Part shown: positions 1 through 5,107 of the stretch, in pieces
Position numbering within the stretch: position 1 is the stretch's first letter
How the letters are laid out: every line of letters starts with the position of its first letter
Source: a virus
Taxonomy: Duplodnaviria > Heunggongvirae > Uroviricota > Caudoviricetes
IMG/VR virus record: IMGVR_UViG_3300000301_000108
Reading direction: 5' to 3' (one strand)
DNA: 5,107 bases
Notes under the pieces: generated by a model
Database searches by the model: none
What the model saw: only the letters and a program-made list of their open reading frames with translations
Told to the model about the DNA's origin: nothing
Translations under genes and position numbers: made by a program

Positions 1-109
1 AAATCGGTGGAGCTGCATGACAAAGTCATCGGGCATTATCTGAACATAAAACACCATCAATAAGTTGGAGTCATTACCGAAAATACTCAAATGCCCTCCT
101 CATTGGACG

Positions 110-141
110 AAAAAAATGCTGGTGGGAGCACTCCACCAGCA
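110..141 (-). terminator. Rho-independent terminator closing the minus-strand gene array
   Basis: Perfect 9-bp inverted repeat TGCTGGTGG (117-125) / CCACCAGCA (133-141) with a 7-nt loop. On the minus-strand transcript the hairpin is followed directly by a run of 7 U (plus-strand A-run 110-116). It sits about 22 nt downstream of the TGA stop at 163-165. Confidence 0.65.
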
Positions 142-162
142 TTAAAAGTGACACTGTAACTA

Positions 163-1396
163 TCAGCGAACGTAAATAGTGCCGCCGTTCTCTTTTTCCC
201 ATGCATCGCTACGTGCATAGCAAACATCGAGAAGTCTTCTTGCCGCAGTTTCCTCTAAACCCAATTCGACAACCAACTGCTCATGACGGCGGGTAACCAC
301 ATCAAACAGGGTATGCAGCCCTTTAGTTGCCAGATCATCAATGAATTCCGGTTCGAACGGCAGCTCTGCATCTGCCAACATAACCTCTTGCGCCCACTCA
401 ACTCGACGGACCAATTCCGGGCGGCGGCTTTCCATCTCTTTACAGATCAATTCATGGAAGAACTCTACCCAACCTTCCGGCTGAAACTCGCGGAAAATTG
501 CCAACGGCTGGAAGTTTGGCATCAACCATTCGTTGATTCGGATATCAATGGCATAGCCCATGTCGCAGCAGAACTGATAAGCAAAGTCCCGCTTAGAAAC
601 GATATAAGGACGCTCGTTATTGAACTCTTTAGGCGATGAGATCCCATAAGCCAGGAGGCGCGGGAAGAAGGAGATTTGCCCTAACGTCGGATGAAGTTTG
701 CTTGCAGGGAAACGGCGCTNNNNNNNNNNNNNNNNNNNNNNNNNNNNNNNNNNNNNNNNNNNNNNNNNNNNNNNNNNNNNNNNNNNNNNNNNNNNNNNNN
801 NNNNNNNNNNNNNNNTTTCCTTCTTGAGCGTCGCAAATTTGGCATTCTCATTAACCAGCGCGGTAACCTCTGCTTTTTTATTAGCAAATGCCACGCGCGC
901 CTCGCTTGCATCTTTAATAGTTTTTTTGAGCTGTTGGTTAAGGTCGGCGACCTGCTTACGCAGTTCCTGTCGCTCGCTTTTAGCTTTGTTATAGCGTTTC
1001 TCAAGGTTAAAAGGATCAAGTTTCATGATCTCTTTATATTGAGATTTTAGCGTTGAAATCTGTAAGTTCCGCAGTTCAACCATCGCGGTCATTTCATTGA
1101 GTTTTGTTTCCAGCTCAATGCTTATACGTTCGGCATTATCAGCACGCTGGTTGGCGTCATGCGTCGCATCGTCGATCGCGTCCTGTTGCTGGCGTTTCAA
1201 ATGTTCAATTTGCAGCTGAAGCTCTTCAATTTCTTTACCCTTCAGACCGAGATCCAACTGCATATTTTCAGCTGCATCTACCAGGGAGTTATGGCTATCA
1301 GCTTCTGCGTTATAAACATCAATAAGCTGTGCGTGAAGCATCTCCGCTGACTGAACCGCATTATCAAAAAAACGTGCTGTGAGGTCATCACAACTA
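163..1396 (-). CDS. Large hypothetical protein: N-terminal coiled-coil region plus C-terminal globular domain of unknown function; 5' end hidden in masked run 1397-1486
   Basis: Long minus-strand ORF with stop TGA at 163-165. The frame is open on both sides of the in-gene N-run 720-815 (96 nt, frame-preserving) and stays open from 1341 up into the N-run 1397-1486. The N-terminal half is rich in E/K/Q/L with heptad-like periodicity (e.g. EIEELQLQIEHLKRQQQ). The C-terminal ~200 aa are aromatic/Cys-containing and globular-looking. No family recognised by eye. Confidence 0.8.
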
Positions 1397-1486
1397 NNNN
1401 NNNNNNNNNNNNNNNNNNNNNNNNNNNNNNNNNNNNNNNNNNNNNNNNNNNNNNNNNNNNNNNNNNNNNNNNNNNNNNNNNNNNNN

Positions 1487-1586
1487 GCGCGGCCCGGATG
1501 TTCTGGATAATGGCCGGGATACCGGCATTCAGGACATCAGGGATAGATACATTTTCGATTGATTGGTTTTGTGCTGAAGTGCTCAT
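1487..1586 (-). CDS. Small hypothetical protein; only the N-terminal 33 codons are visible (MSTSAQNQSIENVSIPDVLNAGIPAIIQNIRAA), 3' end hidden in N-run
   Basis: ATG at 1584-1586 lies 1 nt after the TGA stop of the upstream 72-aa ORF (TGAAATG arrangement), with a weak GGAA Shine-Dalgarno. Its frame differs from the large downstream ORF, so it must end inside the masked run 1397-1486 unless there is a frameshift. Confidence 0.4.
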
Positions 1587-1587
1587 T

Positions 1588-1806
1588 TCAAAGTTCCGTA
1601 TTAGCTTGTGCTTCGGTCATTTTTCCTAAGTATGAAGGTGGAAGGACTACGCAATTTGTATCCAGTCCCTCACCTATGGCAGCCTGTAAAATTCTGGCTA
1701 AGGTGAGTCTCTTGTTGCGATACCTGGTGATGACATGCCTGATACCGCCGGTCGGCGTAACAAAGGCGATCAGCCAGTAGTGATATTTCCGTCGGAATGG
1801 CCACAT
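1588..1806 (-). CDS. Hypothetical 72-aa protein
   Basis: ATG at 1804-1806 preceded by AAGGTG (Shine-Dalgarno-like) 4 nt upstream on the minus strand. Stop TGA at 1588-1590 abuts the next start. No recognisable domain by eye. Confidence 0.5.
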   Translation of the reverse strand: MWPFRRKYHYWLIAFVTPTGGIRHVITRYRNKRLTLARILQAAIGEGLDTNCVVLPPSYLGKMTEAQANTEL

Positions 1807-1820
1807 AGTGCACCTTGTGG

Positions 1821-1886
1821 ATTGCTCTAATAAAAAACATGATGAGTGTACATCACGTTTTAAAAATAATGAATTATTAGAGCAAT
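1821..1886. promoter_or_regulatory. Nested inverted repeat / stem-loop inside the 97-bp intergenic gap (1807-1903)
   Basis: Outer perfect 13-bp inverted repeat ATTGCTCTAATAA (1821-1833) / TTATTAGAGCAAT (1874-1886). Inner imperfect 11-bp repeat AAAACATGATG (1834-1844) / CATCACGTTTT (1851-1861) with a 6-nt loop. On the minus-strand transcript the inner hairpin is followed by a U-rich tract (UUUUUUAUU). Confidence 0.5.
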
Positions 1887-1903
1887 ATTATTCTGATTCT
1901 CGC

Positions 1904-2590
1904 TCAAAAAAATGAGCTGATAAGGGGAAGCCAATCCTCTGACACTTCGCGAGGTCGCGGTTTGCCGTGGAAAAAGATTATTCGGCAGTCTTTTGGTAAT
2001 GCCCCATTCCCCCTGGAGTAACGCGCGCTCGCATATTTCGAACCAGGTTCCACAACATCGGCCTTGTAACTTACAAACCATCCCGGATACAGATCCTGAA
2101 ATGCTGGTGTATCATCACCCATAACCTTCCGCAAAAACCCCTGATCACCCCAGCATTCAGTAGTAACACAACGAGCAATCCAACCTTCCGGATCTTGCCA
2201 GAATGCACTCCAGATATGCGCTTTTACACTATTTGGTATCCACAGGGCACCGCTGCCACGATATTGTGGATGGTAAAAATCCCTAAGCATGGTGAAGCTG
2301 GTTGGTGGATTCTCTAGGATTGGGCGTATATCACCGGCAATAACCGTGTCCAAATCCAGATAGAACAGATCATCGGTTATATCCGGTCGGAACAACTCGA
2401 TTTTCGCCCACCAGCCACGGCACTTTTGCCACTGGTTGATCAATGGGACAACTTTGACGCCAGGTACATGTAAACGCTTCAGGTCTGTCAGGCAAATAAT
2501 TTCATAGCCTTTTGGCAGTTGATTAACCAGCCACTGCACATCGGAAGCGTTATAGTCACCACCAGAGCGAAGAACTAAAGCAATCTTCAT
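1904..2590 (-). CDS. GT-A fold glycosyltransferase, GT8-like (retaining-type signature), about 229 aa
   Basis: ORF from ATG 2588-2590 to stop TGA 1904-1906. Motifs: N-terminal MKIALVLRSGGDYNA (compare GT8 starts such as LgtC MDIVFAADDNYA), DxD-type ...WWAKIELFRPDITDDLFYLDLDTVI (compare LgtC YARLKLGEYIADCDKVLYLDIDVLV), and C-terminal IFFHGKPRP (compare the GT8 H-x-G-x-x-KPW motif). The start could lie further upstream inside N-run 2594-2787. Confidence 0.7.
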   Translation of the reverse strand: MKIALVLRSGGDYNASDVQWLVNQLPKGYEIICLTDLKRLHVPGVKVVPLINQWQKCRGWWAKIELFRPDITDDLFYLDLDTVIAGDIRPILENPPTSFTMLRDFYHPQYRGSGALWIPNSVKAHIWSAFWQDPEGWIARCVTTECWGDQGFLRKVMGDDTPAFQDLYPGWFVSYKADVVEPGSKYASARYSRGNGALPKDCRIIFFHGKPRPREVSEDWLPLISSFF

Positions 2591-2666
2591 GCTNNNNNNN
2601 NNNNNNNNNNNNNNNNNNNNNNNNNNNNNNNNNNNNNNNNNNNNNNNNNNNNNNNNNNNNNNNNNN

Positions 2667-3356
2667 NNNNNNNNNNNNNNNNNNNNNNNNNNNNNNNNNN
2701 NNNNNNNNNNNNNNNNNNNNNNNNNNNNNNNNNNNNNNNNNNNNNNNNNNNNNNNNNNNNNNNNNNNNNNNNNNNNNNNNNNNNNNNAAACGATCTGCGC
2801 CAGAAATTTCGCCACCAATATCATCCATCGAATCACTGATACGCTCGCGCGCCCAGACAACGTTGAAAAGCGGCACCTCCTTACCGAATTGATATTCATT
2901 ATCCGGATAGTCGGCATGGGCTATAACGATAGTTTCTTGCCCGGTGTTCAACTCAATGATATAGGGCAGTCGTCTTACCAACTCCACCAGCGCCCTGGCT
3001 AATATTTCCTGATCAGCGTCCAGCATGAAGAACCATTGACCGCCATTCATTAGCCAGTTATTCACGTTGCCATCTGGACTTAACGCATCAATCATCAGCC
3101 GCTCATGGTTCCCCATCACTGCCCTGAACCAGGGCATCTGCAATAGTTCCAGACATTCGACATTTTCAGTACCGCGATCGATAAGGTCGCCGACCGATAT
3201 CAGTAAATCCTGCGCCGGGTCAAAATCCACACGATGGAGTTCGGACATCAGTCTGGTGTAGCAACCATGCAGATCACCAACAACCCAGACATTCCTGTAT
3301 TTGGTACCGTCGATACGGTGATAAATTGTGGGTGCCATCATGTATTCTTCAGCCAT
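2667..3356 (-). CDS. Ser/Thr protein phosphatase, phage lambda PPase (ORF221/NinI)-like metallophosphoesterase
   Basis: Translation aligns along its visible length to lambda phosphatase: [78 protein letters not shown]. It contains the PPP-family GDxHG / GDxxDRG / GNHE motifs. The C-terminal ~40 codons are masked, so the 3' end (~2667) is estimated from lambda PPase length. Start may be ATG 3356 or the downstream ATGs at 3341/3338. Confidence 0.9.
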
Positions 3357-3964
3357 TCTTTAAGAGTCATCTGCGGAATACCTCCCATTTTCCCGCATGA
3401 AACAACGTCAATCTGTTCACGCGCAGACTGGAATAACAAAGGCAGGTGACTTAGATTTTTTGGCGTGCCGCCGGAGTGAACGCGTGGTTCTTGTGTAGCG
3501 TCAACGCCCACCAGGGCGACATGTTTGAATCCGATATGGAAAGCCAGGTTCAGAGCACCATATGCACTATTGCCGCTGGCAATTTCATTCTCATCTTCGC
3601 AAAGGCCGAAATGTGCGGACCAGCGCCACGCCCACCACTCGGGAGAATTCGTATTTTTTGGCTCCGTGCCGCGCTCAGCCACACGACGGAAGCACAGAAC
3701 GCCATCTCTGACTTCACGTTCTTTAACATCGGGTAGTGCCATGCAATAACAAACACCACGGCGACGGCGGCCACGACCAACGCGCCGCATATTGTCTGGC
3801 GATGGATCAAGGGTGAAAAAATAAGAAGCGCGGTTAAGCCAGTCGATGGCCCCATTGACCGCTATAATCGGCACTCCGCGCGGCGCAACAAAGTTTGCGG
3901 CGCTTGGGCCACTGCCGACGATAATAACGCGATCACTGCCTCTAAATTTATTCTTGGGAAACAT
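3338..3964 (-). CDS. Sialyltransferase-like / DUF115 (MptE/Maf-like) fold protein, paralog A (208 aa)
   Basis: ATG 3962-3964, stop TGA 3338-3340. N-terminal motif [10 protein letters not shown]...[11 protein letters not shown] resembles the h-h-h-G-N/S-GPSL ... N motif of Cst-II-type sialyltransferases and DUF115/Maf proteins. Internal [26 protein letters not shown] matches the second conserved block of that fold. The stop overlaps the phosphatase start (TGATG). Confidence 0.75.
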
Positions 3965-4482
3965 TGAATTGCACTGCTCCTACTTGCATTCAAAATATGT
4001 AAATCTGCGTGTTTTTTGCGGGTATCCAGGAACTGCTGTTGCCATTTTGAAATAGACACCTGCGTTGGATTCCGTAGGGCTTGAGGGTGCGCGCCATGCC
4101 AATGAAGGCCGTTTTGCAGAGAACAGTCATAGCCGACTAATACCACTACTTCAGCCCCTGATTCAGCAGCCAGACTGATAGCCTGCGCGCCGCTATTTAC
4201 CCCTTCCGCCGGTCCACAATATCGCCTGTACTCCAACGAAAATGATTTCGCCGCCGCCAGGTTGGCTGTCACTTTGCGGAATCTCCCTCCCGGTATGGTG
4301 GATCCGTATTGCTTCCACCATGACAAATCACCGGCGTATAAGGCATAAATGTCATCGAACATCTGCCAGGAATTGTTAACCGCGATGATTGAACAGCCAG
4401 TTTTTTCTATAGCAGCACAGTCCTCACGAGTGAGTGACGGACCGCTACCGACACAAAAAACAGTCCTAGTCGCCCTGGGTGG
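3862..4482 (-). CDS. Sialyltransferase-like / DUF115 (MptE/Maf-like) fold protein, paralog B; 5' end hidden in N-run 4483-4598
   Basis: The frame is open from stop 3862-3864 upward past the annotated ATG at 4362 into the N-run. The upstream extension reads ...TRTVFCVGSGPSLTREDCAAIEKTGCSIIAVNNSWQMFDD, the same GSGPS...IIAVN signature as paralog A, so the true start is upstream of 4362 (probably just inside the N-run). Second block SGAQAISLAAESGAEVVVLVGYD is present. Confidence 0.7.
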   Translation of the reverse strand, partial: PPRATRTVFCVGSGPSLTREDCAAIEKTGCSIIAVNNSWQMFDDIYALYAGDLSWWKQYGSTIPGGRFRKVTANLAAAKSFSLEYRRYCGPAEGVNSGAQAISLAAESGAEVVVLVGYDCSLQNGLHWHGAHPQALRNPTQVSISKWQQQFLDTRKKHADLHILNASRSSAIQCFPRINLEAVIALLSSAVAQAPQTLLRRAECRL

Positions 4483-4598
4483 NNNNNNNNNNNNNNNNNN
4501 NNNNNNNNNNNNNNNNNNNNNNNNNNNNNNNNNNNNNNNNNNNNNNNNNNNNNNNNNNNNNNNNNNNNNNNNNNNNNNNNNNNNNNNNNNNNNNNNNN

Positions 4599-4697
4599 AT
4601 TCATTTCAGCGATTACCGGGTCCACTACAGCATCTGCTTCCTGTTCATTACGCGGCATGATCGATGCCAGCGATTCATAATTAGCCTTGAATGACAC
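4599..4697 (-). CDS. Small hypothetical ORF (MSFKANYESLASIMPRNEQEADAVVDPVIAEMN...), 3' end hidden in N-run
   Basis: GTG at 4695-4697 preceded by GGGAGA with 6-nt spacing (a strong Shine-Dalgarno). The ORF track extends this frame to a GTG at 4739, which lacks an SD. Its frame differs from paralog B, so it must terminate inside the masked run. Confidence 0.35.
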
Positions 4698-4739
4698 GAT
4701 TATTCTCCCGATGTTAATGTGCGCTATATCAAAGAGCAC

Positions 4740-4808
4740 ATATGCACTAATTAATTTATTATTTTAAGCAGCATACAACCACTTGTCGCCGTTCAATACA
4801 TGCTCAAT
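4740..4808 (-). promoter_or_regulatory. AT-rich intergenic region, candidate internal promoter for downstream minus-strand genes
   Basis: About 70-bp AT-rich stretch between the VRR-NUC-like gene and the next ORF. The minus strand carries TTGAAC and TTGTAT -35-like hexamers and TATGCT / ATTAAT -10-like hexamers, but no pair has ideal spacing. Confidence 0.25.
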
Positions 4809-4903
4809 NNNNNNNNNNNNNNNNNNNNNNNNNNNNNNNNNNNNNNNNNNNNNNNNNNNNNNNNNNNNNNNNNNNNNNNNNNNNNNNNNNNNNNNNNNNN
4901 NNN

Positions 4904-5107
4904 AAGGCTTATGTATTCCAGGATGGCGGTTATCGCTTGTTCTGCACCATACGCAAGAACGACGTAGTAACCTTCCTCTCTAAGCCTGCGCATCCAGGCG
5001 ATCTGCTCTTTCGTCGGGGCTTTACCATTTGGTTCTTTAAGCTCAATTCGCATGCGGTGATGCTGCCAACTTACTGATTTAGTGTATGATGGTGTTTTTG
5101 AGGTGCT
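4904..5107 (-). CDS. VRR-NUC domain (PD-(D/E)xK-type) nuclease-like protein, partial: 5' end beyond window, 3' end inside N-run 4809-4903
   Basis: Minus-strand frame is open from the window edge. Visible sequence ...RMRIELKEPNGKAPTKEQIAWMRRLREEGYYVVLAYGAEQAITAILEYISL matches the C-terminal half of VRR-NUC domains (E-x-K catalytic motif, then a helix). Such genes are typical of lambdoid early regions. Confidence 0.6.

Follow-up and report, generated by a model that had tools for sequence, protein, structure and literature searches.

A C1-controlled operon of a P1-like phage-plasmid carries a three-gene glycosyltransferase-type cassette with virion proteins as possible targets

The window analysed here, a stretch of 5,107 nt from the IMG/VR virus record IMGVR_UViG_3300000301_000108, carries the C1-repressor-controlled pmgN-pmgO-pmgP-ppp-pmgQ operon of a P1-like phage-plasmid. 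The assignment of the pmgO, pmgP and pmgQ products (O, P and Q hereafter) to the glycosyltransferase type is well supported, and co-occurrence and natural fusions show that the three act together as one cassette, whose chemistry is predicted. Gene neighbourhoods suggest virion proteins as the target. The overall reading, that O, P and Q build a glycan on virion proteins, chiefly those of the head, with the phosphatase Ppp standing apart, is favoured tentatively, with confidence somewhat short of even.

Megablast and annotation place the whole fragment at 98-99% nucleotide identity to P1, P7, RCS47 and SJ46, and the five-gene operon is also found at 98-99% identity in hundreds of P1-like plasmids. 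The P7 equivalents are hdmA-hdmB-hdmC-ppp-hdmD, and GenBank AF234172 and AF503408 are the P1/P7 records of the locus. Gene order, overlaps and C1 operators are shared with P1 and P7. However, in the window the fragment is bracketed by two IS1 ends, pmgM is truncated, PmgQ stops five residues early (a T7 rather than a T6 homopolymer run), and the region upstream of pmgN is of the P7/RCS47 type and not of the P1 c1.100 type. The first-pass annotation had wrongly placed these genes in a lambda-type nin region; their neighbours are P1 pmgM/pmgN on the upstream side and pmgR/pmgS on the downstream side, with no nin, Q or replication setting, which rules out a lambdoid context. It had also allowed that its proposal would fall if the genes were a common, already annotated nin-region module of known function. 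The set is indeed common in P1-like plasmids and already carries RefSeq product labels there ('alpha-2,3-sialyltransferase', 'metallophosphoesterase' and 'glycosyltransferase'), so this objection holds in part, but it does not extend to a nin region or to a known function. No functional study of pmgO, pmgP or pmgQ was found in the literature. The P1 listing gives pmgO, pmgP, ppp and pmgQ as non-essential, and in the P1 knock-out library plaquing and anti-restriction are unaltered for the non-essential pmg genes.

The left edge of the P1-derived fragment is the 3' terminus of an IS1 element (1..78; these 78 nt are 97% identical to the final 78 nt of IS1 in plasmid NZ_CP060066), a junction common to many P1-like plasmids. 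The right edge is the 5' terminus of another IS1 copy, oriented like the first (5056..5107; 92% identity to the IS1 start in NZ_CP060066), and this junction is present in a few P1-like plasmids, such as NZ_LT883139.1. Three minus-strand genes provide context only: pmgS (163..1586), which encodes a coiled-coil protein with 99% identity to P1 pmgS and is interrupted by N-runs at 720-815 and 1397-1486; an ORF between pmgS and pmgQ (1588..1806), taken from the ORF list, P1 annotation and essentiality data; and the VRR-NUC-like 3' part of pmgM (4764..5055), cut on its 5' side by IS1. Two C1 operator-like sites at 1821..1886 (1821-1837, plus strand; 1870-1886, minus strand), which correspond to OpmgRb/OpmgRa of P1 by pattern match and annotation, delimit the pmgN-pmgQ transcription unit on its downstream side. 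Each has three mismatches to the pattern ATTGCTCTAATAAATTT, and two matches were obtained where 0.02 were expected. At the upstream end, window 4599-4808 was mapped onto P1 (L001) 3960-3751, which, with P1 annotation, puts the equivalent of the C1 operator Oppp (Op83) at 4741..4757 on the plus strand; this sequence, TATGCACTAATTAATTT, has four mismatches to the C1-site search pattern. The PpmgN promoter equivalent maps in the same way to about 4770-4796.

The first operon gene, pmgN, is a small acidic ORF recognised by P1/P7 annotation and PHROG 2350 (function unknown); its 5' part is visible at 4599..4697 on the minus strand and the rest is masked, with a GTG start at 4697 preceded by GGGAGA. 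It is followed by pmgO (3862..4600), whose first ~40 codons are masked by an N-run at 4483-4598, pmgP (3338..3964; 208 aa, complete in the window), ppp (2587..3356; C-terminal third masked by an N-run at 2594-2787) and pmgQ (1904..2590; 228 aa). These four genes all lie on the minus strand, and the co-orientation and tight coupling noted earlier are confirmed by their overlaps: 103 nt between pmgO and pmgP (C-terminal pmgO codons, given as ~20, over the pmgP start), 19 nt between pmgP and ppp, or ATGA if ppp starts at 3341, and ATGA between ppp and pmgQ. The N-runs exceed the homologous stretches of relatives by 76-81 nt, and reading frames are therefore not transferable across them.

PmgO and PmgP are basic proteins (pI 9.3 and 9.5) of 208-220 aa, and both contain VGSGPS...IIAVN. 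BLASTP detects only a weak match between them (E 0.003, N-terminal motif only), but at the profile level their relationship as distant paralogues is clear (hhalign probability 99.4%, E 3.5e-21, 170 columns, 22% identity). A Maf glycosyltransferase was the top match in a fold search, and the predicted fold is common to Maf and MptE; for PmgP the fold search was needed, as neither the single sequence nor the family profile gave anything meaningful against PDB sequences. The Pfam family PF01973 has a gathering threshold of 34.6 bits, which P1 PmgO (23.4) and window PmgP (20.9) miss, with matches limited to the C-terminal ~35 profile positions, although some family members pass it (P0241 at 44.6 bits and P0288 at 44.1 bits). 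NCBIfam offers no model for any of O, P, Q and N, PADLOC found no defence-system match among the four proteins, and a BFVD fold search returned many uncharacterised phage MptE-like proteins, none with an annotated function.

The O-family profile matches only the Cst-II/Cst-I sialyltransferases in the PDB, with marginal E values of 0.003-0.4, and PmgO falls in PHROG 4603 ('alpha-2,3-sialyltransferase'). In the hmmsearch alignment, the Cst-II G-x-G-P-S nucleotide-binding loop and the N31, T131/S132 and D154 columns align with the O family and are invariant or nearly so. However, an invariant His (H141) stands in the Y162 column and an invariant Asp in the N51 column, and no conserved counterpart of the Cst-II catalytic residue His188 was found in the O family, the invariant residue there being N179. 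In Cst-II, Tyr156/Tyr162 contact the phosphate and His188 is the catalytic base. Since the Tyr162 and His188 columns are not kept, PmgO and PmgP should not, on their sequences, be filed as members of GT42. The donor must differ as well, because the Campylobacter enzymes (CAZy GT42) use CMP-sialic acid, which E. coli K-12 and most hosts do not make, and its use by PmgO or PmgP is unlikely in hosts without sialic acid synthesis.

PmgQ contains YLDLD and HGKPRP motifs, and its predicted fold is GT-A Rossmann-like, with GT8 structures as nearest neighbours. No Pfam family matches P1 PmgQ even at E <= 1, Glyco_transf_8 included, and its placement as a compact GT8-like enzyme follows instead from the fold and from the family profile against the PDB (E 6.8e-8). 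The DxD motif, D79-L-D81, does not vary among 51 homologues and lines up with that of AgtA, GlyE and glycogenin. G148-D149-Q150, at least 90% conserved along with H208-G209-P211-P213, aligns with the GDQG of glycogenin and GlyE, and the C-terminal His motif (H-x-x-G-x-x-K/R-P-W) aligns with HFLGQTKPW of glycogenin. Profile and fold searches thus back both enzyme calls of the first-pass annotation, namely two DUF115/MptE/Maf/Cst-II-like paralogues and a GT8-like GT-A enzyme downstream.

The diversity of the cassette was surveyed by a species-dereplicated genome scan; a scan of viral contigs with a PmgP alignment returned only P1-like contigs with 99-100% identity and was of no use for this purpose. 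O, P and Q occur together in about 25 unrelated prophages or islands of Alpha-, Beta- and Gammaproteobacteria and Bacteroidota, including loci from Pseudomonas, Ochrobactrum, Alloalcanivorax, Zhongshania, Commensalibacter, Methylophilaceae, Brevundimonas, Sinomicrobium, Mesorhizobium, Rhizobium, Sphingomonadaceae, Citrobacter phage phiNP and E. coli phage IME392. Natural fusions join O to P (P0241), Q to P (P0336), P to Q (P0249 and P0317), Q and P to a SAM methyltransferase (P0298), and a methyltransferase to P (P0339), which indicates that the three work together. Sugar-type methyl- or acetyltransferase genes often accompany O, P and Q, and the accessory genes inside the cassette are of the sugar-tailoring type: methyltransferases (SAM and FkbM), a hexapeptide acyltransferase and additional GT-A genes. 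The operon itself has long been known; the co-occurrence and the fusions are new here. That the four P1 genes are merely adjacent, unrelated 'morons' with no common pathway would agree with the individual dispensability of each in P1, but for O, P and Q it is contradicted by their co-occurrence across phyla and their fusion in several orders, and it is extremely unlikely. Only Ppp behaves as such a view would expect, in that it is indeed an independent insertion.

The GDLHG, GDLIDRG and GNHE motifs of this phosphatase can be read in the translation of window 3356-2788. It matches the lambda phosphatase (NinI, PDB 1G5B) end to end, at residues 11-229 with E 6e-95, as well as Pfam Metallophos (E 9e-16) and a NinI-like PHROG. 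Its earlier description as a lambda-type enzyme, here a PPP-family Ser/Thr phosphatase, was correct, as it is a clear orthologue sharing all metallophosphoesterase motifs. However, lambda NinI sits in the nin region, whereas Ppp lies between two transferase genes of the P1 operon. No Ppp homologue was found within ~7 kb of O, P or Q in any non-P1 locus examined, and a phosphatase fusion was never seen among the natural fusions that link O, P, Q and methyltransferases. Given this absence from all non-P1 loci and all fusions, sequence comparison identifies ppp as an insertion, acquired separately and confined to the P1 lineage, that separates pmgP from pmgQ. An integral role in the pathway is ruled out on the same grounds, Ppp is probably outside the glycosylation chemistry, and the earlier picture of a module built around the phosphatase has to be given up. 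This also bears on the decidedly unlikely idea that PmgO and PmgP belong to the MptE- or thiamine-pyrophosphokinase-like (pyro)phosphotransferases and use a sugar or small molecule as substrate, perhaps paired with the P1 phosphatase: Ppp is a protein phosphatase orthologue missing outside the P1 lineage, the Cst-I/II matches and the Maf fold described above point elsewhere, and the constant partners, covalently fused ones included, are a GT8 glycosyltransferase and sugar-type methyltransferases.

The setting of the cassette suggests what it may act on. In 13 of the ~25 independent loci it lies at most three genes from capsid, portal, MuF or terminase (TerL) genes; it comes immediately after the major capsid gene, or with one gene in between, in L003, L004, L098 and L118, and in L119 it follows within a few small genes. 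This proximity spans HK97/ClpP-type, MuF-type and T7-like head modules. In four loci the cassette occupies the late lysis/terminase junction. In Pseudescherichia and Serratia chromosomes the O gene is directly 3' of Big_1/invasin inverse-autotransporter (giant Ig-domain) adhesin genes, and in two alphaproteobacterial prophages the cassette follows collagen-repeat protein genes. Other settings include DNA ligase and PolX (IME392), ribonucleotide reductase (Sinomicrobium) and a fimbrial operon on one contig. In P1 itself the operon has baseplate/tail genes on one side and pmgR/pmgS on the other, with the capsid gene not adjacent, and its promoter is a sigma-70 promoter under C1 control, with no obvious late promoter of its own. 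A search of capsid tails beside the cassette for Ser/Thr-rich candidate acceptor sites gave nothing convincing. The region of the head genes is, moreover, known to attract unrelated cargo, as in the portal-Acb1 fusion of L110.

These neighbourhoods weigh against a lipid acceptor. P1 adsorbs to the LPS core, and during lytic growth the cassette could remodel a glycolipid of the host envelope (LPS/LOS core or some other lipid-linked glycan), destroying or masking the receptor so that progeny are not lost on debris or infected cells. Such an acceptor is conceivable, as the closest GT8/GT42 relatives include the LPS/LOS-core enzymes LgtC and Cst-II, but this explanation is unlikely: surface-conversion genes are seldom found among capsid, portal and MuF genes or in late operons, a position there allows little time for export, and linkage to adhesin and collagen-repeat genes points to protein acceptors. 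The C1 operators, moreover, imply silence in the lysogen, which rules out classical lysogenic conversion.

A DNA target is very unlikely. P1 DNA is a classical substrate of restriction, and Dam/Mod methylation is its only known modification, which counts against glycosylation or hypermodification of phage DNA as protection from restriction. No C5-methyltransferase, TET/5mYOX, hmC/hmU synthase or DNA kinase was found beside the cassette in the loci examined, the adhesin-linked chromosomal copies are hard to reconcile with such a role, and the unaltered anti-restriction of the P1 knock-outs speaks against it, even though the basic character of PmgO and PmgP and late expression would be compatible with DNA modification and phage GT-A/GT8-like enzymes are known to glycosylate 5hmC in DNA (preprint 10.1101/2023.12.21.572611). 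The first-pass annotation had named DNA, virion proteins and host surface structures together as targets. Gene context favours the virion proteins, anti-restriction is disfavoured by the knock-out phenotypes, and superinfection exclusion or lysogenic conversion is disfavoured by the C1 operators that bracket the operon.

In the preferred reading, virion protein glycosylation, three soluble glycosyltransferase-type enzymes would build one glycan. PmgQ would be a GT8-type, metal-dependent, probably retaining hexosyltransferase with a host UDP-sugar as donor, and PmgO and PmgP would be paralogous enzymes with the Maf/Cst-II (CMP-ulosonic-acid transferase) fold. The cassette has no sugar-biosynthesis genes, so the donors must be host nucleotide sugars; speculatively, CMP-Kdo is the donor that first comes to mind for O and P when the host is Gram-negative. 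The acceptors would be virion proteins, head proteins above all, glycosylated in the cytoplasm in late lytic growth, much as Maf acts on flagellin and mycobacteriophage glycosyltransferases act on capsid and tail-tube subunits. Maf, GlyE, Skp1 alpha-GalT and glycogenin, which give the best structural matches, are all protein-glycosylating enzymes. Against this reading, P1 virions are not known to carry a glycan: two papers, on the P1 proteome and on its head structure, do not mention one, and an Acinetobacter 'RNA and sugars' paper concerns host glycans and not virion glycoproteins. Any benefit would show only under certain conditions, through particle stability, adhesion, or masking from antibodies or adsorption sinks, which would fit the dispensability of the operon in the laboratory. 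A bolder version, doubtful as a whole, is that the cassette represents a widespread, previously unrecognised virion O-glycosylation in Gram-negative phages, P1 among them, in which Maf-like enzymes draw an ulosonic acid from the universal CMP-Kdo pool of the host and add it to capsid or other particle proteins, the GT8 enzyme extends it, methyl- and acetyltransferases are optional, and bacteria have co-opted the system for Ig-domain adhesins.

In P1, a paradigm phage and a workhorse for E. coli geneticists, about one fifth of the genes are still without a function, and 'putative morphogenetic function' has been the placeholder given to this operon since 2004. A vague annotation is replaced here by a specific hypothesis that is cheap to test, since the knock-outs already exist. 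If virion glycosylation is correct, it would extend to Gram-negative phages a phenomenon documented mainly in mycobacteriophages and giant viruses, would bear on phage-therapy immunogenicity, particle stability and the glyco-engineering of phage particles, and would define a new small protein-glycosyltransferase family related to Maf and the sialyltransferases. Should the target be LPS or DNA, the cassette would nonetheless give a model phage a new host-takeover or anti-defence function.

Compared with known systems, the enzymes are compact. The Maf flagellin glycosyltransferases (PDB 5MU5, MptE-like/DUF115) have ~630 aa and extra domains, whereas PmgO and PmgP resemble ~200-aa catalytic cores with 17% sequence identity to Maf; and, unlike the Maf setting, no O/P/Q locus examined contains flagellar or NulO-biosynthesis genes. 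PmgQ, at 228-233 aa, is likewise much smaller than the retaining GT8 enzymes GlyE, Skp1 alpha-GalT (AgtA), glycogenin and LgtC, with 13-17% identity. The virion glycosylation of mycobacteriophages (Freeman et al. 2023, Cell Host Microbe, as cited in PMC10877033) and the capsid glycosylation of chlorovirus PBCV-1 (A64R, PDB 2P6W) involve other enzyme families and host phyla; in both, the particle glycans have been shown by experiment, whereas those proposed for the P1-like cassette are predicted from gene context.

Positions 1850-4750 of the window are 98-99% identical to phages P1, P7, RCS47 and SJ46 and their relatives in a megablast search against phage genomes. Every gene in the window is carried on the minus strand: a truncated pmgM (5055-4764), pmgN (from 4697 into a masked run), pmgO (4600-3862), pmgP (3964-3338), ppp (3356-2587), pmgQ (2590-1904), pmgR (1806-1588) and pmgS (1586-163). 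The central genes are named pmgN-pmgO-pmgP-ppp-pmgQ in the P1 record and hdmA-hdmB-hdmC-ppp-hdmD in the P7 record, and in both phages they are flanked by pmgM upstream and by pmgR and pmgS downstream. The first-pass annotation had placed them in a lambdoid nin region; given this identity and the annotated P1/P7 gene order, that framing is wrong, and the locus is the P1/P7 operon.

The window is bounded by IS1 sequence in direct orientation, with an IS1 3' end at 1-78 and an IS1 5' end at 5056-5107. The P1-derived DNA between them (79-5061, ~4.98 kb) extends from the truncated pmgM through pmgS; the bracketing removes the N-terminal ~120 codons of pmgM and breaks at the start of pap. Both junctions are present in sequenced P1-like plasmids, such as NZ_LT883139.1, and the arrangement is either composite-transposon-like or the result of two IS1 insertions into a P1-like phage-plasmid. 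Despite its "morphogenetic" label, pmgM (4764-5055) encodes a VRR-NUC-like nuclease domain, detected below the Pfam threshold, and PHROG relates PmgM to "Holliday junction resolvase". Five runs of N, at 720-815 (96 nt), 1397-1486 (90 nt), 2594-2787 (194 nt), 4483-4598 (116 nt) and 4809-4903 (95 nt), correspond to 15, 10, 117, 40 and 15 nt, respectively, in both P1 and plasmid NZ_CP060066. All five exceed the matching stretches of relatives by 76-81 nt, and frames and distances across the masks are therefore unreliable.

A sigma-70 promoter (~4796-4770) and the operator Oppp of the C1 repressor (4757-4741), both mapped from the P1 record, precede pmgN. Two further C1 operators, placed by the P1 record and matched in the window, lie just after pmgQ (1821-1837 and 1870-1886), where a pattern search gave two matches and chance alone would predict 0.02. 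Because the promoter and operators bracket them in this way, pmgN, pmgO, pmgP, ppp and pmgQ are a single repressor-controlled transcription unit, which a late promoter located farther upstream, LPpmgL, may also transcribe. Neighboring genes overlap. The ppp and pmgQ ORFs share an ATGA, and pmgP and ppp overlap by 19 nt with the annotated ppp start at 3356, or by an ATGA (3341-3338) if ppp instead uses the ATG overlapping the stop codon of pmgP. This alternative may be the true start: the alignment with lambda phosphatase begins only at Ppp residue 11, and a start at 3341 fits the lambda N-terminus better. The pmgO/pmgP overlap is unusually long at 103 nt (3862-3964), compared with only 7-11 nt between such genes in other phages. 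The final ~20 residues of P1 PmgO run past the conserved C-terminus of its family, and the DNA encoding them also encodes the conserved N-terminal nucleotide-binding loop of PmgP. Near the 3' end of pmgQ (~1911-1917), seven T residues replace the six of P1 and shift the frame, so that PmgQ ends in LISSFF (228 aa) in the window and in FFERESE (233 aa) in P1; this is either a sequencing/homopolymer error or a harmless C-terminal variant.

In a pairwise comparison, PmgO and PmgP resemble each other only in the N-terminal GSGPS...IAVN region (E 0.003). When alignments of 47 PmgP homologues and 19 PmgO homologues from related loci were compared using hhalign, the similarity extended over 170 columns (probability 99.4%, E 3.5E-21), and on the basis of these alignments the two proteins are genuine, ancient paralogues. 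A PDB search with the PmgO-family profile matched only Cst-II and Cst-I (E 0.003-0.4). Conserved positions in the PmgO family align to the GNGPS loop, N31, N51, T131/S132, D154 and Y162 of Cst-II; however, an invariant aspartate occupies the N51 column and an invariant histidine the Y162 column, and no conserved equivalent of Cst-II His188 was found in the family alignment. PmgO and PmgP are thus predicted to share the Cst-II active-site architecture, yet given these altered columns and the missing histidine, they are not GT42 members. Ppp aligns end to end with lambda phosphatase (1G5B, E 6E-95). The motif-based family calls made initially, including the relationship between the two upstream paralogues, were therefore correct.

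The genes themselves have long been known, and the bare observation is not new. They have carried the label "putative morphogenetic function" in P1 ever since its genome was annotated and are called "head morphogenesis" in P7, while RefSeq and PHROGs already designate PmgO an "alpha-2,3-sialyltransferase" and PmgQ a "glycosyltransferase". A genome-wide CRISPRi screen found pmgO, pmgP, ppp and pmgQ to be non-essential, and the same report lists all four as non-essential in a P1 knock-out study (PMC10695390). In the knock-out study, 24 non-essential P1 deletions plaqued normally and left anti-restriction unchanged (PMC9024508). A literature search found no paper assigning a function to pmgO, pmgP or pmgQ. 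What appears to be undescribed is the conserved O-P-Q cassette (hereafter, O, P and Q denote PmgO-, PmgP- and PmgQ-like genes or proteins) with its methyltransferases, the fact that it is independent of Ppp, the fusions among its members and, in proteobacterial phages, its preferential location in the head module.

Both PmgP, with 328 matches and with 629 of 1.84 billion cluster representatives, and PmgQ, with 136 matches, have homologues well outside P1-like elements. About 25 independent loci were compared by running local profiles of O, P, Q and Ppp against them and annotating the neighboring genes with Pfam. The order O-P-Q is found in Pseudomonas, Brevundimonas and Citrobacter phage phiNP, with an extra GT-A-like gene before Q in Commensalibacter, one unannotated gene there in E. 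coli phage IME392, and a methyltransferase gene in Zhongshania. Other arrangements include P-methyltransferase-Q-O (Alloalcanivorax), O-Q-P-FkbM methyltransferase (Sinomicrobium, Bacteroidota), O-acetyltransferase-Q (Mesorhizobium) and O-O-methyltransferase-x-Q (a sphingomonad), and P-Q, O-Q or Q alone is found in other loci. Several homologous proteins are fusions: O-P (P0241), Q-P (P0336), P-Q (P0249 and P0317), Q-P-SAM methyltransferase (P0298) and methyltransferase-P (P0339). Co-occurrence across phyla and these Rosetta-stone fusions show, at the level of sequence, that O, P, Q and the sugar-tailoring methyl- and acetyltransferases work in one pathway. The phosphatase had initially been considered the center of the module; the same evidence identifies it as a lineage-specific insertion, with Ppp homologues confined to P1-like elements in the profile searches. 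In the Pseudomonas prophage (L003:9254-9835), a 193-aa gene following the trio has an LDVD motif, and its product looks like a candidate fourth, unrelated GT-A glycosyltransferase.

The cassette very probably encodes cooperating glycosyltransferase-type enzymes, and their product would be a short glycan that in some cases is methylated or acetylated. The fold of O and P would also permit a kinase-type activity, which is quite unlikely given its poor fit to the constant GT8 and methyltransferase partners. Since the cassette lacks sugar-biosynthesis genes, its donors must be host nucleotide sugars. The GT8 enzyme, PmgQ, would use a host UDP-hexose, and for the Maf/Cst-like pair PmgO and PmgP, an appealing guess would be CMP-Kdo, the one CMP-ulosonic acid common to all Gram-negatives.

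In 13 loci, capsid, portal, MuF or large-terminase genes are found no more than three genes away from the cassette. The cassette directly follows the major capsid gene, or is one gene past it, in HK97/ClpP-type prophages of Pseudomonas (L003), Ochrobactrum (L004), Zhongshania (L098) and Onishia (L118), and is a few small genes past it in a T7-like contig (L119). It is located between the MuF and capsid genes in Mu-like heads (L104, L110, L115), just ahead of head-completion genes (L116), after the terminase (L099) or after the portal (L102, L107, L108). In four loci (Alloalcanivorax L006, phiNP L112, Buttiauxella L103 and Serratia L117), it occupies the late operon's lysis/terminase junction or sits within a lysis cassette. 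Exceptions adjoin DNA ligase and PolX (IME392), ribonucleotide reductase (Sinomicrobium) or a fimbrial operon (one contig), or have an uninformative neighbor (L100). LgtC and Cst-II are among the relatives of these enzymes and P1 uses LPS as its receptor, which would suit remodelling of the LPS/LOS core; this is unlikely given the poor fit to the late/head context and to C1 repression.

Two prophages of alphaproteobacteria have O located after a gene whose product combines collagen repeats with a CBM5/12-like C-terminus. Between their portal and PmgO-like genes, alphaproteobacterial prophages encode proteins (L106:4258-5091, L109:5188-6378 and L107:5617-6672) that share an MFDGKAF... N-terminus, continue with a linker or with collagen triple-helix repeats and end in a CBM5/12-like domain; these may be head fibres, and they are possible acceptors of the glycan. 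In Pseudescherichia MAGs and Serratia plymuthica, O is directly 3' of giant Big_1/invasin inverse-autotransporter adhesin genes, with P and Q nearby. Several surface proteins of the Big_1/invasin type, among them an inverse autotransporter of 1178 aa, are encoded in this chromosomal island (L092:281-13419, also L093-L096; L117:1-7603), and in Serratia a Q-P pair lies between holin and phage lysozyme genes. Glycosylation of DNA, for which phage GT-A enzymes provide a precedent, is very unlikely given these adhesin-linked copies, the lack of hmC/hmU pathway genes beside the cassette in the loci examined and the lack of an anti-restriction phenotype.

The acceptors would instead be proteins and, in phages, virion proteins, as suggested by recurrence of the cassette inside head-gene clusters and late operons, by its linkage to adhesin and collagen-repeat genes, and by its nearest structural relatives, Maf, GlyE, Skp1 alpha-GalT and glycogenin, which glycosylate proteins. 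Against a virion target, the P1 operon does not adjoin the capsid gene, and no report of a glycan on P1 is known; the P1 proteome and head-structure papers make no mention of glycans. Phage head regions also collect unrelated cargo: the sphingomonad prophage has a gene (L110:3362-5224) whose product joins a portal protein to an anti-CBASS Acb1 phosphodiesterase domain, and this gene lies immediately ahead of MuF and of the O-O-methyltransferase-Q cassette. The full proposal, a cooperating glycan cassette with host donors and virion-protein acceptors in phages, is tentative, with a little under an even chance of being correct. P1 is a model phage, and mutants for a direct test already exist in the knock-out library of Gonzales et al. 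2022. A fourth line of evidence for protein acceptors is a precedent, the glycosylation of capsid and tail-tube proteins in mycobacteriophages (Freeman et al. 2023, as cited in PMC10877033). If the cassette does glycosylate virions, it would represent virus-encoded virion glycosylation by different enzyme families and in a different host group.
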